Made by a program: the position numbers and the translations under genes | Notes under the pieces: model-generated | What the model was told of the DNA's origin: nothing | Databases searched by the model: none | Seen by the model: the letters and a program-made list of their open reading frames with translations, nothing else | From: a virus | Taxonomy: Duplodnaviria; Caudoviricetes | Length of the DNA: 64,000 nucleotides | Direction: 5' to 3' (one strand) | Virus record (IMG/VR): IMGVR_UViG_2821032209_000001 | Location: 484-64,483 of that record | Shown: piece after piece, positions 11,478 to 56,070 of the stretch | Numbering within the stretch: position 1 is the stretch's first letter | How the letters are laid out: every line of letters begins with the position of its first letter

Positions 11478-11535
11478 ACCCAACAGGCGCGGCTACCAAC
11501 CGCGCCTTCTACCACCAAACACGAGGAGACTTAGA

Positions 11536-11916
11536 ATGGGACAGTCAACCGACGCAATTCTTGTTTTTGGCATTCAGCTGAAAGAAGAGGACCAAACACC
11601 AGAATTTTTGGGCGATTTTGACGACTTTGACGAGTACGTTGACAATCTGAACGGCCTTTCAGGCGCCGATTATAAGGTTCGAAAAGACGCCCGCGAATCC
11701 TGCCCCGCGGATATGACGATGCACTGTTCGCTCGACTATACCATGTACGTTTTGTCCGTTCGGGGCACTGAAACTGTCGCATCTCGCGGATACCCAAAAG
11801 AAATTAAAACTCTGGATGTTTCAGCCACACAGATTGAGGCGTTCAAGGAATGGTGCGCGGCGCGCGGCATTGAGAGCGCGGAGCCTAAATGGCTGCTTTG
11901 CAGCATGTGGGCTTAA
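11536..11916 (+). CDS. Hypothetical phage protein (MGQSTDAILVFGI...)
   Basis: ATG after ACACGAGGAG. Confidence 0.7.
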   Translation: MGQSTDAILVFGIQLKEEDQTPEFLGDFDDFDEYVDNLNGLSGADYKVRKDARESCPADMTMHCSLDYTMYVLSVRGTETVASRGYPKEIKTLDVSATQIEAFKEWCAARGIESAEPKWLLCSMWA

Positions 11917-11958
11917 CGGCGGGCGAAAACCAACCATCCTTCACACGAGGAGACTTTG

Positions 11959-12996
11959 ATGAGAGTCAGCATTGACCGCTCACAGCTCGCGCACGCCTTG
12001 GCGACCGTCACGCGCGCCATCGAAAACCGCAACACGATTCCTATTCTCGCCAACGTGCTCTTGGCTGTTGAGGACGGCCAGTTGCGCCTCACCGGCACCG
12101 ATCTGGACGTGGAGATTACGACCAGTCTGCCGGTGCTCGACTGCCAGCCGGGCAGCGTTACCGTTCCCGGCAAGATGCTTGCGGACATCGCAAAGCGCGC
12201 GACGGGCGACATATCGCTTGCCTTAGATGGAGGTCGCCTTACGGTCGCATCTGGTCGCAGCCAGTATAAGCTCGACGTTTTGCCCGCTCAAGACTTTCCG
12301 TCCTTCAGTGCAGGGAAGTTCGACACGACGCTTGAGCTCGATCTGGCCGCGCTTGTTGCGCCGTGTGTGCACGCAATCTCCACGGAAGAAGCCCGTTATT
12401 ACCTCAATGGCGTCTATCTGCATGCCGTCGACGACCGATTGGTTGCTGTAGCAACAGACGGGCACCGGCTTATGCGAAATGTCGGCCCTGCCGGTGATTT
12501 GGACTACGGCGCTATACTGCCGCGCAAGCTCGTGGGTTTACTGCCGAAAGGTGCTGTTACGGTCGAACTGTCCCAAAACAAGGTGCGCGTCACGTCTGGC
12601 TCGACGGTTATCACTTCCAAGCTGATCGACGGCACGTTTCCTGATTATGTGCGTGTCATTCCAGCCGGTAATAGCAACGTGCTTGCCGTCGATCGGCAGG
12701 CGCTCATGAAGGCGGTCGAGCGTGTCGCCGCGGTTGCGGACGACAAATCTCGCGCCGTAAAATTCGCAGTCGGCGATGTGCTCCGACTGATGCTGGCTGA
12801 CAAGGCCAGCGATGAGGTTTCGATTGAGTTCGAAGGCGAGCCTTTGGAAATCGGCTTTAACGCCCGGTACGTCAACGACATGCTTGGCGCGTTGGATGAA
12901 GCAAACGTGCGCTTTGCTCTCGGCGATGCAGGCTCGCCTGCCGTCGTCAAGGGCGAGGGCGAGTGGACGGGCGTGCTTATGCCGATGAGGGTGTAG
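11959..12996 (+). CDS. dnaN: DNA polymerase III beta sliding clamp homologue
   Basis: RNTIPILANVLL, LTGTDLD, ARYYLNGVY, VATDGHRL, KLIDGTFPDY, IGFNARY, VLMPMRV. Confidence 0.93.
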   Translation: MRVSIDRSQLAHALATVTRAIENRNTIPILANVLLAVEDGQLRLTGTDLDVEITTSLPVLDCQPGSVTVPGKMLADIAKRATGDISLALDGGRLTVASGRSQYKLDVLPAQDFPSFSAGKFDTTLELDLAALVAPCVHAISTEEARYYLNGVYLHAVDDRLVAVATDGHRLMRNVGPAGDLDYGAILPRKLVGLLPKGAVTVELSQNKVRVTSGSTVITSKLIDGTFPDYVRVIPAGNSNVLAVDRQALMKAVERVAAVADDKSRAVKFAVGDVLRLMLADKASDEVSIEFEGEPLEIGFNARYVNDMLGALDEANVRFALGDAGSPAVVKGEGEWTGVLMPMRV

Positions 12997-12999
12997 GGG

Positions 13000-13188
13000 A
13001 TGGCGCCAACCAAAAAACGGCTCGATGAACCCGCAATCTTCAACGCCGTTGAATATGCGCTGCGCCATGAAGGCGTTACCGAAATCGCGTTTTCAGAAGA
13101 TGGCGAATACGAAGTCGAAATCCACGAGGCATCCAGCTTGATGCCATTCGTCAGATGCCTGTTGCGCGAGTTGGAGGTGATTTCCTAA
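13000..13188 (+). CDS. Hypothetical protein
   Basis: 62-aa ORF within the operon. Confidence 0.5.
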   Translation: MAPTKKRLDEPAIFNAVEYALRHEGVTEIAFSEDGEYEVEIHEASSLMPFVRCLLRELEVIS

Positions 13189-53610: not shown

Positions 53611-53825
53611 GCACAAGCCATGGAGGCCCGGCCTTTCCATCCACGGTAGAAGCCGGTGAGGATCGCTTTGGTAACAAGTCTCATGTCTTTTATCGAGGCA
53701 TGACGCTGCGCGATTACTTTGCGGGGCAGGCGTTGGCCAGTTGGCCAATTACGGATCATAGCACCGATCTAGCCAGTAAATGCTACGCGCTCGCCGACGC
53801 CATGCTTGCGGCAAGAGGACACTAG
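53607..53825 (+). CDS. Conserved small phage protein (GGPAFP...GMTLRDYFA family)
   Basis: GGPAFP, GMTLRDYFAGQAL, CYALADAMLAAR. Confidence 0.8.
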   Translation: MSTSHGGPAFPSTVEAGEDRFGNKSHVFYRGMTLRDYFAGQALASWPITDHSTDLASKCYALADAMLAARGH

Positions 53826-55067
53826 ATGAAGCTTTCACACGAAGAACTCCTGCGGCGCGCCGAGGCTTACCGTGAGCACGGCACGCTGGTTAAGGCTGCC
53901 GCTGCGCTCGGCATAAAGAAGTCGGCGTTCCACGAGAGCATCAAGCGGGCGGCGGAGATTGGGCTGTTGGGGCCGGCACCGACGCTGCCCGGTTATGCGA
54001 TCAAAAGCCTGACCGAGACGCCGAACGGCACATATATGCGCCAGATGAAAGAGGCTGGCGACAAGTGGCGGGTACCGGAGGGACATGCTGTACGCGGCGT
54101 GTCAGCGCTGATTGACGCGGAAGGCCGCATCATCCAGCAATGGCAGAAGACGGCTGTTGAGCGCGAGCCCGAAGATTATATAAAGCGGCTAAAGGCTGCG
54201 ATGGCCGACTATGAGCCCGCTACGACCACATCTATGCCGTTCGTTTCCGACGCTGATCTATTGACGCTCACGCCGTTGGCCGATTGGCATATCGGTTTGA
54301 GAGCATGGGCAGGCGACACGGGAACAAATTGGGATTTGGCAATCGCGGAACGAGTCATCGGGCAGGGCATCGAGGATGCTGTTGCTCGCTCGCCAGCCTC
54401 TGCCCACGCTATCGTGCTGGGCGGGGGTGATTTACTCCACTCAGATTCCAACGAGAACAAAACGGCCCGGTCCGGCAACGCGCTTGATGTTGATGGCCGT
54501 TACGACAAGTGCATTGACGTTGCCGGGCGGCTGGTTGTCAAAACCATAGACGCCAACCTGCGACGGCACCGGCACGTCACTGTTCGCATCCTAAAAGGCA
54601 ATCACGACGAGCATTCCAGCGTAGCTGTCGCCTACTTCCTTAAAGGCCACTACCGCAACGAACCGCGTGTGACCGTCGATACCGATGCAAGCCTCTTTTT
54701 TTGGCATCGTTTCGGCAAGGTGATGATTGGCGCGACGCATGGCCACGAAGCCAAGATCGCCAACATGCCGTCCATTATGGCTCATCGGCGCGCAGAGGAT
54801 TGGGGCGCGACCCTCTTCCGATACGTTCATGGGTTTCATCTGCATCACTCGGCGAAGTATGCGACTGAAGGCGGCGGATGCATTTCCGAGGTCCATCAGA
54901 CCCCGACGCCGCAAGATGCGTGGCATTGGGGGTCTGGCTACCTGTCCGGGCGGTCAATTCAGTCAATTACCTACCATAGGGACTATGGCGAAATTAGCCG
55001 TGTAAGGGTGGCTATGGTTGATGGCGGGCCGATTGCGGCAAACGATGATGTAAGGGTAGCAGCATGA
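53826..55067 (+). CDS. Calcineurin-like metallophosphoesterase with an N-terminal HTH
   Basis: DWHIG, GGDLLH, GNHD, HGH, GFHLHH motifs. Confidence 0.85.
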   Translation: MKLSHEELLRRAEAYREHGTLVKAAAALGIKKSAFHESIKRAAEIGLLGPAPTLPGYAIKSLTETPNGTYMRQMKEAGDKWRVPEGHAVRGVSALIDAEGRIIQQWQKTAVEREPEDYIKRLKAAMADYEPATTTSMPFVSDADLLTLTPLADWHIGLRAWAGDTGTNWDLAIAERVIGQGIEDAVARSPASAHAIVLGGGDLLHSDSNENKTARSGNALDVDGRYDKCIDVAGRLVVKTIDANLRRHRHVTVRILKGNHDEHSSVAVAYFLKGHYRNEPRVTVDTDASLFFWHRFGKVMIGATHGHEAKIANMPSIMAHRRAEDWGATLFRYVHGFHLHHSAKYATEGGGCISEVHQTPTPQDAWHWGSGYLSGRSIQSITYHRDYGEISRVRVAMVDGGPIAANDDVRVAA

Positions 55068-55819
55068 TTTGCACCGTCGAAGGATGCGAAAAGAGGGCGA
55101 GTTGGGGTGACCTTTGCAGCGGCCACGGCCACAGGCTTAAGAGGTACGGATCTCCAACAGGAAAGCCCGCACCTAAAGTTCTTGGCGTCTGCGCCGTTGA
55201 TGGGTGCGGAGGGAAGCTGGCGGGCGCGGGATATTGTCGAAAGCACTACAAGAGATTCCGCGCTCACGGCGACCCTCTTGGTGGCGGGATCGATTATGGT
55301 TCTGCCAACGAGTTTGTGGTTGATTCTGCCAATTCGGAAGAGAAGATCGAGTGCATTATATGGCCGTTTGGCAAATCCAAGGACGGGTACGGTCGCGTTA
55401 ATGTCGGGGGTACGCCCAAGGGCGCTCATGTCGCGGTAGCTGAGCTTGCCCATGGCCCGAAGCCCACTGCAAAGCACGAATGCTGCCATTCGTGCGGGAA
55501 TGGGCACCTTGGCTGCGTCAACCCTGCCCACATGTATTGGGGAACGCGAAAGGAAAATGTAGCCGATGCGATTGCACATGGAACTTCATACACGCTCCAT
55601 GTGCCGATCGGGGAGGCGCACCACTGCGCGAAATACGATGACGCAACAATAGATATTGCTATGCGGAGAATACAAAGTGGAGAGCGCCCGTCCTCGGTTG
55701 CGAGGTCATTGGGTATATCTGCGTCTTACATTTATAGCTTGTCTAGCGGTAAATCCAAGCGCGCTCAGGCTTGGCTTGCCGCGAATGATAATGTGGCGAG
55801 CGAGAGAAGGGTGGCTTGA
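55064..55819 (+). CDS. Free-standing HNH endonuclease
   Basis: C-x4-C...C-x2-H repeats; CCHSCGNGHLGCVNPAHMYWGTRKENVAD; C-terminal HTH. Confidence 0.85.
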   Translation: MICTVEGCEKRASWGDLCSGHGHRLKRYGSPTGKPAPKVLGVCAVDGCGGKLAGAGYCRKHYKRFRAHGDPLGGGIDYGSANEFVVDSANSEEKIECIIWPFGKSKDGYGRVNVGGTPKGAHVAVAELAHGPKPTAKHECCHSCGNGHLGCVNPAHMYWGTRKENVADAIAHGTSYTLHVPIGEAHHCAKYDDATIDIAMRRIQSGERPSSVARSLGISASYIYSLSSGKSKRAQAWLAANDNVASERRVA

Positions 55820-56016
55820 AGCGTTTAGTTTTGATCCCCGACGGATGGTCGGCCCCATACGGTGAAATAAAGCCAGGATTGTTCCTAGCCAATGGCGAGG
55901 TGTGCCTAAAATCAGAATACGGGCAAGAGGGCTATTGCGACAGTGGCGAAGCTTTTGCGCGGCATAAAATGGAGGTCCAGCCGATCAAGGCGATTTGGGA
56001 AGAATACGAAGACTAA
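55816..56016 (+). CDS. Hypothetical protein
   Basis: TTGA-coupled 66-aa ORF. Confidence 0.5.
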   Translation: MKRLVLIPDGWSAPYGEIKPGLFLANGEVCLKSEYGQEGYCDSGEAFARHKMEVQPIKAIWEEYED

Positions 56017-56070
56017 CCAACTCGCGCCGCCCACCAAGCGGCGCTTTCACCACAAAAACGAGGAGAGAAC

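Follow-up and report, generated by a model that had tools for sequence, protein, structure and literature searches.

A gene-start-linked hairpin with a conserved CCA loop core and covarying stems in temperate phages of alphaproteobacteria

Introduction

Among the systems described so far, the start-associated signals SAS and ESAS of Cluster K mycobacteriophages are the closest analogue of the element analysed here. SAS is a private, extended Shine-Dalgarno-containing motif repeated 11-19 times, 3-7 bp before the starts of non-structural genes and in one orientation (PMC3203893). It stands in front of genes from various families, an inverted repeat lies immediately before roughly half of its sites, and a translational role has been proposed for it (Pope et al. 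2011, PMC3203893). The ESAS arms are conserved 17-bp repeats; deviations from their sequence lend no support to pairing as RNA, and binding of DNA is the explanation that the authors prefer (PMC3203893). Our element is a short hairpin with a seven-nucleotide CYACCAA-type loop that recurs upstream of gene starts in a stretch of 64,000 nucleotides (nt), hereafter the window, which covers positions 484 to 64,483 of the IMG/VR virus record IMGVR_UViG_2821032209_000001 (Duplodnaviria; Caudoviricetes) and is nearly the whole of this 64,483-base provirus record.

Two further systems serve for comparison. In phage T4, the gp43 operator is a single autoregulatory hairpin site, and the RegA sites are A+U-rich and unstructured (PMC3014915). 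In Salmonella, C/A-rich and ACA elements upstream of the Shine-Dalgarno (SD) sequence are proven translation enhancers (PMC3879156). A preliminary description of the window had likened its hairpins to lambda nut boxB with boxA. On comparative sequence evidence, the hairpin is a real and undescribed phage RNA motif with good support from relatives. The role we favour for it, with a probability of about 0.45, would be exercised in cis at the RNA level and linked to the gene start, in translation initiation and message stability.

Results and discussion

Hairpins and gene starts in the window

All five stretches named in the preliminary description were confirmed letter for letter, and they comprise four perfect hairpins (stems of 5-8 bp, loop CTACCAA or CCACCAA) and one variant with a 4-bp stem. 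The four are real and far beyond chance, while the fifth, at 53255-53269, is a weak variant. Scores refer to R1, a covariance model of the hairpin alone that was built from a gapless alignment of 19 sequences (A1); the seeds of both were picked for pairing, and the four R1 matches of the window, at 11484, 17729, 24222 and 56022, are the model's own seeds.

All features of this section lie on the plus strand. The first hairpin (11485..11507), with an 8-bp GC-rich stem and the loop CTACCAA, starts 12 nt past the TAA (11470-11472) of a small upstream gene (30.9 bits, E 1.8e-4; fold z -2.6). Its leader (11508..11538) holds a C/A-rich spacer with ACCACCA, the SD sequence ACGAGGAG at 11521-11528 and ATG 11536 of a gene for 126 amino acids (aa). 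The second (17730..17752; 8-bp stem, loop CCACCAA; 29.0 bits, fold z -2.2) begins 8 nt past the stop of gene 17488-17721, and is followed at 17753..17783 by the C/A-rich spacer TTACCACCACGAAAC, an SD at 17768-17775 and ATG 17781 of a DNA methyltransferase-like gene. The third (24226..24242; 5-bp stem, loop CTACCAA; 22.0 bits, fold z -0.6) stands 9 nt past a 32-nt box and heads the HNH/terminase (late) operon, with spacer, SD (24256-24263) and ATG 24269 of an HNH-like endonuclease at 24243..24271. The fourth (56024..56044; 7-bp stem, loop CCACCAA; 28.9 bits, fold z -3.1) lies 7 nt past the stop of gene 55816-56016, and its leader (56045..56073) consists of the spacer TTTCACCACAAAA, the SD AACGAGGAG at 56057-56065 and ATG 56071 of a nucleoside deoxyribosyltransferase-like gene. 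Three of the window hairpins hence begin 7-12 nt past a stop codon.

The doubtful variant (53255..53269) has the loop CTCACCA on its 4-bp stem, a CCACCAA in the spacer, an SD at 53283-53290 and ATG 53296. It is missed by R1 at E<=10, its fold z is -0.05, and its relatives show no compensating changes, the orthologues being either unchanged or contained in a longer alternative stem. The hairpins are present in the minimum-energy fold of all five leaders, and the two short ones (24226 and 53255) are not significant alone.

In all five leaders the hairpin ends 13-15 nt before ACGAGGAG, which equals the 11-13 nt before the longer (A)CACGAGGAG given in the preliminary description; its observation that no U tract follows was equally confirmed, as only 0-3 T occur after each stem. 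An intrinsic terminator was rejected on the same ground. Pausing, attenuation or a role as single-stranded DNA, taken jointly, is highly improbable. The sequence ACGAGGAG is an extended SD, with an ATG 2-8 nt on in 11 of its 13 window copies, and every copy is oriented with its gene. The 15 nt before these 13 sites contain 45% C, 35% A and 6% G, compared with 26.5%, 23.5% and 28% in the genome.

Loop specificity

The loop was evaluated by a loop-first count over nine phage genomes (587 kb, both strands), in which the heptamer was taken first and the flanking pairing scored afterwards, with no selection on pairing. At least five perfect Watson-Crick flanking pairs were observed at 17 of 169 C[CT]ACCAA heptamers, as against 1836 of 1,173,494 positions overall (0.16%) and 5 of 2498 heptamers in a control comprising the 34 other orderings of the CCACCAA letters. 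The window itself has 17 CYACCAA heptamers, 13 of them on the plus strand, and four of these 13 have perfect stems of 5-8 bp. Across 248 sequences of relatives (3.28 Mb), CCACCAA was the 7-nt loop found with the most distinct stems (10), followed by the tRNA-Met anticodon loop with 9, and every other ordering of its letters had at most one. By both counts the conservation of the loop is sequence-specific, though the leaders are strongly C/A-rich.

Occurrence in related phages and linkage to gene starts

R1 matches number 3, 2, 3, 3 and 4 in the related genomes G001-G005, and 5, 2, 1, 0 and 0 in G010, G013, G011, G009 and G012, respectively; a pattern scan adds a few more copies, including one with CCACCAC in G012. 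Genomes carry about 2-6 copies, every one on the gene strand, and the copies in relatives are followed by a C/A-rich spacer, a GAGGAG-type SD and an ATG, with many stems that are absent from the seeds. Over all sequence compared there are 81 distinct copies with at least 17 different stems, and 73 of them have an SD and a start codon at most 40 nt downstream, an arrangement found at 1.5-2.4% of random positions. In 63 of those 73 the AUG lies 22-31 nt past the stem. Seven of the eight exceptions sit in distant cellular loci or in coding sequence and are probably due to chance; the eighth, in locus L258, is promoter-proximal and has a longer leader.

The element is confined to phage DNA. When complete genomes of three hosts (3.8-4.6 Mb) were searched and the best 150 of 508-716 candidates scored, R1 gave 7 matches at E<=1, of which six have prophage-like surroundings and the same genes downstream; the seventh is probably false. 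The nearest relatives of the clamp gene downstream of the 11485 hairpin come from Brucella pseudintermedia, Brucella daejeonensis, Ochrobactrum sp. and Falsochrobactrum genomes and from 62 IMG/VR loci, and the carriers of the hairpin are temperate siphovirus-like prophages of Brucella/Ochrobactrum/Falsochrobactrum-type and other alphaproteobacteria. Rfam at its gathering threshold found only a tRNA in the window, and at E<=5 no match overlapped a hairpin in 10300-24400 and 53100-56200; a full-text literature search, supplements aside, returned no description of the element. With its strand specificity, its conserved loop and no Rfam match, the hairpin bears out the earlier view of an undescribed element.

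A further class of sites was observed in G003 (~6109, minus strand) and G004 (~6299), where ACGAGGAG and ATG follow a hairpin with a 10-bp stem and the loop TTACCAA or TCACCAA; the window has no such site.

Covariation and loop variation at orthologous sites

The statement that the stems differ and yet pair, made for the sites of the window, is borne out in relatives, where covariation was found at the orthologous HNH and clamp sites. Upstream of the HNH gene, the loop is kept on differing stems: 24 loci have TGCCG, 7 have TCAGC, 5 have TTCCG and 1 has TCGGC/GCTGA with a G.U pair. The contexts of this site were compared in 71 of 80 loci (omitting L231, L233, L235-L237 and L241-L244), except that one of the 71, L171, was skipped because its match starts too near the locus end. 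Upstream of the clamp gene, the AGGCGCGG hairpin is present in 23 of 29 distinct sequences at >=73% protein identity; at 44-50% identity a CCA-loop hairpin occurs on other stems in 3 of 6, and G013 has yet another stem. None of 78 more distant, mostly cellular clamp-upstream sequences has a CCA-loop hairpin as its best hairpin. A conserved loop carried on covarying stems suggests, at the level of sequence comparison, that something reads the loop.

The loop had been called invariant, which is true of the four hairpins of the window and not of their orthologues, in which only the CCA core is fixed. Among 44 copies of the 11485 type (some records counted twice) the loop is TTGCCAG in 15, CTACCAA in 11, CCACCAA in 6, TTACCAG in 6, TCACCAG in 4, TTACCAA in 1 and CTACCAC in 1, and one further relative (L031/L069) has CTCACCA. 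The loop letters C, C and A are invariant in the 19 hairpins of A1, with A at position 3 in >=90%; in a wider and noisier set of 36 copies, picked for CCA at positions 4-6, position 3 is a purine in 32. Loops also differ inside one genome, as with TCACCAG and CCACCAA in G003.

Purine-C-C-A resembles the RCCA at the 3' end of tRNA as well as a glycine-type anticodon loop. By analogy, the loop might attract, or act as a decoy for, a host enzyme that binds tRNA (a processing RNase, a synthetase or an anticodon nuclease, for example), and the seven-nucleotide length, the CCA that never varies in A1 and the second ACCA past the stem are consistent with this. We nevertheless regard such mimicry as extremely improbable, given that C and U are equally frequent at loop position 2, where the anticodon loops of tRNAs carry U, and that the ACCA sits 1-5 nt past the stem and not adjacent to it.

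Promoter-like context

The 24226 hairpin and the 53255 variant follow two copies of a promoter- or operator-like box of 32 nt on the plus strand, the first (24185..24216) directly upstream of the hairpin and the second (53210..53241) 13 nt before the variant, ahead of the 53296-57274 operon. The two are 91% identical, and 52 distinct copies occur in related loci. The layout of the box is TTAACA, 17 nt, TTCCA(C/T), and some relatives insert a second unit, TTGACA-17-nt-TTCCAT, followed after 7 nt by another CCA-loop hairpin. A terminator scan found none at 23900-24300 or 53000-53320. The box is probably an activator-dependent promoter or an operator.

In L258 and L043 the hairpin likewise stands a few nt past a TTGACA-17-nt-(-10-like) arrangement. 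L258 (1425-1525, in G002) presents a canonical U-tract terminator, TTGACA, a -10-like hexamer 17 nt on and a CCACCAA hairpin, with a second CCACCAA directly after the stem and a leader of ~45 nt to the SD. With promoters assigned by eye, the hairpin lies 4-9 nt past the -10-like hexamers in L258, L043 and the window boxes; if these promoters are real, it would be at the very 5' end of the transcript. The hairpin as a promoter for a phage RNA polymerase was rejected: the three open reading frames (ORFs) of at least 700 aa are a primase, a tape measure and a tail fibre, and neither a polymerase nor a sigma factor was found among 50 ORFs scanned, a set outside which many small ORFs fell.

At the 24226 site, CUCCUC at 24217-24222 pairs in the predicted fold with GAGGAG of the SD (24258-24263), enclosing the hairpin. 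Masking of the SD by this pairing was rejected, as it is not conserved and relatives have CTCGTC, CTCATC or CTCACC at the position.

A portable cassette at gene-exchange joints

Across 38 loci the letters of the 17730-type cassette scarcely change, with 11 different N-termini behind it and 30 different upstream 30-mers before it. The clamp gene comes straight after the 11485-type hairpin in most relatives, and in the window the extra 126-aa gene (11536-11916) lies between the two. The SD and the bases following it occur twice here (11521 and 11945), as if the 126-aa gene had been inserted at the ribosome site. The element marks the exact joints of gene exchange, which makes it helpful for placing gene starts and the borders of modules when prophages of the Brucella/Ochrobactrum group are annotated.

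Such mosaicism could mean that the cassette of ~45 nt is a DNA-level linker, a short homology for phage recombination by the Sak4-like annealase, SSB and exonucleases, in which the hairpin is incidental or secondary. The near-identity of the 17730-type cassette amid exchanged neighbours, the inserted gene with its repeated SD and the presence of Sak4-like, SSB and Cas4-type exonuclease proteins in the phage speak for this reading. It leaves unexplained, however, the sites that keep the loop and change the stem, both between sites and between clades, as well as the fixed orientation and the fixed distance to the start codon, and linkage by homology may itself be a consequence of conservation; we therefore judge it improbable. 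A Chi-like hotspot and an integron attC-like site were rejected because the stems covary and the copies are confined to gene starts.

Candidate readers and antitermination

The hairpin of lambda nutR/tR1 is flanked by C-rich, G-poor RNA. The leaders of the window resemble that layout, two copies stand just behind promoter-like boxes, and the first gene behind a leftward TTGACA-18-nt-TATAAC arrangement (3633-3899) encodes a small protein with an Arg-rich N-terminus. These features would suit processive antitermination of the lambda kind, through a nut/boxB-like or put-like RNA in which the hairpin, set in C-rich, G-poor RNA resembling a Rho loading site, would load a factor onto RNA polymerase. 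The proposal of a nut site with boxA was nevertheless not sustained. An 8-nt boxA consensus, allowing at most one mismatch, has 33 matches in the window against 48.2 expected, and on the plus strand none falls in the 400 nt that precede each of the five hairpins. The copies, four per genome, are placed at internal gene junctions and behind the late-type box and not once per early operon; with at least four in a genome, most lie at internal junctions, 8-13 nt past a stop codon. An AUG follows 22-31 nt on in most of them, the single-stranded C-rich part extends over only ~30 nt, and the leader of the first leftward early gene has a hairpin with a different loop, TTGATCT.

Nor does the presence of the two proteins put forward as cognate readers follow the hairpin, with the caveat that small proteins may escape detection in this comparison. 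The 3633-3899 protein is present in G003-G005, G001, G011 and G012, the last with 0 R1 matches, and absent from G010 (5 R1 matches) and G013 (2); an atlas look-up returned only weak leads for it (best 0.89; DUF2188-like 0.82). The 2720-2965 protein is confined to closer genomes and is absent from five of the eight compared (G010, G013, G011, G012 and G009). Antitermination is accordingly very improbable, and a role in translation or mRNA stability is more likely than one of the lambda type.

Another possibility is a phage RNA-binding regulator, perhaps dimeric, that would bind the RCCA loop together with the spacer ACCA and repress or activate the translation of a whole set of genes jointly. 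The loop is specific in sequence and not merely in composition, in most copies the motif recurs 1-5 nt past the stem, and the element is confined to phage DNA within host genomes, all of which would suit such a protein. T4 offers precedents, with RegA acting on ~30 mRNAs and gp43 through a hairpin with conserved loop bases (PMC3014915). Against it, no candidate reader was found, both Arg-rich proteins failing the co-occurrence comparison, and since loops vary within one genome the reader would have to accept R-C-C-A only. The sole window ORF whose presence follows the hairpin in the eight genomes (3075-3308, minus strand, 77 aa; present in G003, G004, G005, G010, G013 and G011, absent from G012 and G009) carries at its C-terminus a hydrophobic segment of membrane type, and its profile has little power, with only one genome entirely without the motif. 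We consider a regulator of this kind, the main rival of the role we favour, conceivable but rather unlikely.

An antisense partner was also considered and rejected: no intergenic complement of the loop was found, and the four minus-strand heptamers lie in leader or coding sequence.

A proposed start-linked role in cis

In most copies the hairpin ends 22-31 nt before the start codon, which points to translation or mRNA stability. The layout of the element is that of a portable leader cassette made up, in order, of a C/A-rich tract, a GC hairpin, a further tract rich in C/A and poor in G, in which ACCA(CCA) is usually repeated, a strong SD and an AUG 22-31 nt past the hairpin. The hairpin of the cassette has 5-10 bp and a 7-nt loop of consensus C-Y-A-C-C-A-A, with the core CCA fixed after a purine. 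The cassette heads genes that need a translation start of their own, either behind a gap after the previous stop or just behind a promoter-like box. In the role that we favour, in translation initiation and message stability, the hairpin would be a boundary or cap that stops RNA further upstream from base-pairing with the ribosome site and shields the 5' end of the transcript, be it primary or processed, and the C/A-rich tract could serve as an unstructured enhancer or standby site. The loop would then be the contact for a putative reader, either a host component common to all hosts, such as a ribosome-associated one, or a phage protein.

Several findings weigh against this role or limit its support. 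Hairpins with other loops fill equivalent positions on the plus strand of the window: one with a GAAA loop (10355..10380) follows a stop and precedes a C/A-rich spacer, ACGAGGAG and ATG 10416, and one with a GCGA loop (16601..16620) precedes a C/A-rich spacer with CCACCAA (16648-16654), an SD and ATG 16671. A plain boundary hairpin can thus do with any loop, and the cis model alone leaves the conservation of the loop unexplained. At two sites (AGGCGCGG and CCGCCAG; G000 and G003-G005) the stem letters themselves are kept across distant relatives, beyond what pairing needs, which could mean DNA-level or recombinational constraints. Single stem changes in the 17730 orthologues, as read from the copies, keep a G.U pair on the sense strand in 2 cases and only on the antisense strand in 2, so that strand specificity rests on orientation and not on wobble pairs. 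The pairing in A1 (86.8%, compared with 47.8% in shuffles) is circular, since its seeds were chosen for their stems, and does not count as independent evidence. Lastly, the promoters were assigned by eye, and a sigma-70 consensus scan lists none at the boxes, nor in L258 and L043.

In more distant relatives the SD is immediately preceded by a C/A-rich ACCACC leader, and the hairpin is missing. Together with the hairpins that carry other loops, this indicates that the general feature is the unstructured C/A-rich leader, to which the hairpin is an added part and its loop a specialisation. What the loop specialises in can be phrased as a bolder conjecture, which we put forward with considerable doubt: the purine-C-C-A loop and the spacer ACCA may form a private 'start code', by which a dedicated reader would switch all independently translated leader genes of the phage together. 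For this reader one may think of a phage protein, or of a host factor, tRNA- or ribosome-associated, that is captured by mimicry of a tRNA feature. If this conjecture is true, a post-transcriptional regulon would extend across a wide family of alphaproteobacterial temperate phages and be portable with the genes it heads.

Genome context

A CI-like repressor is encoded on the minus strand of the provirus at 4347-5132. Its module for replication and recombination comprises a Sak4-like annealase, SSB, a sliding clamp, a Cas4-type exonuclease, a helicase, an exonuclease, methyltransferases and a primase; there is also a late region with HNH, terminase, portal, capsid, tape-measure and tail-fibre genes, and an integrase at the right end of the window. 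U-tract terminators lie at 59612-59632 and at 48708-48728 on the minus strand. Two neighbouring minus-strand genes, 57570-58382 and 58395-59327, each match the Ku-like DNA-end-binding family PHROG 4873, and a phage-borne tRNA-Met gene (anticodon CAT; 25968-26044) is flanked by the HNH-region genes and by another gene for an HNH endonuclease. An early ORF of 108 aa (3305-3631, minus strand) resembles by eye a winged-helix (OmpR-type) DNA-binding domain and has no homologue in the eight related genomes compared.

The 214-aa ORF that crosses the 11485 hairpin (11272-11916) is an artefact, as the small gene upstream of the hairpin is frameshifted near 11390. That gene matches PHROG 13999 (residues 5-36), and its natural frame stops at the TAA at 11470-11472; the start of the 126-aa gene at 11536 shares its frame with the shifted reading.

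Comparison with described systems

The hairpin is a new variant of start-associated signals and not a lambda-type nut site. Like SAS and ESAS, it accompanies a private extended SD motif in one orientation, with 13 ACGAGGAG sites of which 11 have a near ATG. It differs in that the arms here vary between sites and covary under a conserved loop, whereas the ESAS arms are of conserved sequence, and in that it belongs to another host phylum and another phage lineage. The SAS 13-mer itself has 0 matches in the window at <=2 mismatches and 10 at 3 mismatches, compared with 13.96 expected.

With lambda nut the element shares a short hairpin, a conserved loop and a variable stem, in a genome that has a small Arg-rich early protein; the absence of boxA, a loop of another class, the several copies beside ribosome sites and a candidate protein that does not co-occur set it apart. 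The T4 gp43 and RegA systems are alike in that replication-type genes have a hairpin ahead of their ribosome site, or a sequence located at it, that loop bases matter for recognition and that one repressor can serve many mRNAs, whereas the hairpin here is multi-copy and its reader only putative. The Salmonella enhancers of GcvB targets likewise have a C/A-rich single-stranded tract just upstream of the SD, with flexible spacing (PMC3879156). They differ in having no hairpin and in being targets of a GU-rich small RNA (PMC3879156); no such RNA was found here.

If the hairpin is read by a factor, it would add to the phage-specific RNA motifs a new one whose covariation is unusually clean (about 20 stems, one loop), and would join the small class of phage post-transcriptional regulons beside T4 RegA and the SAS/ESAS of mycobacteriophages.

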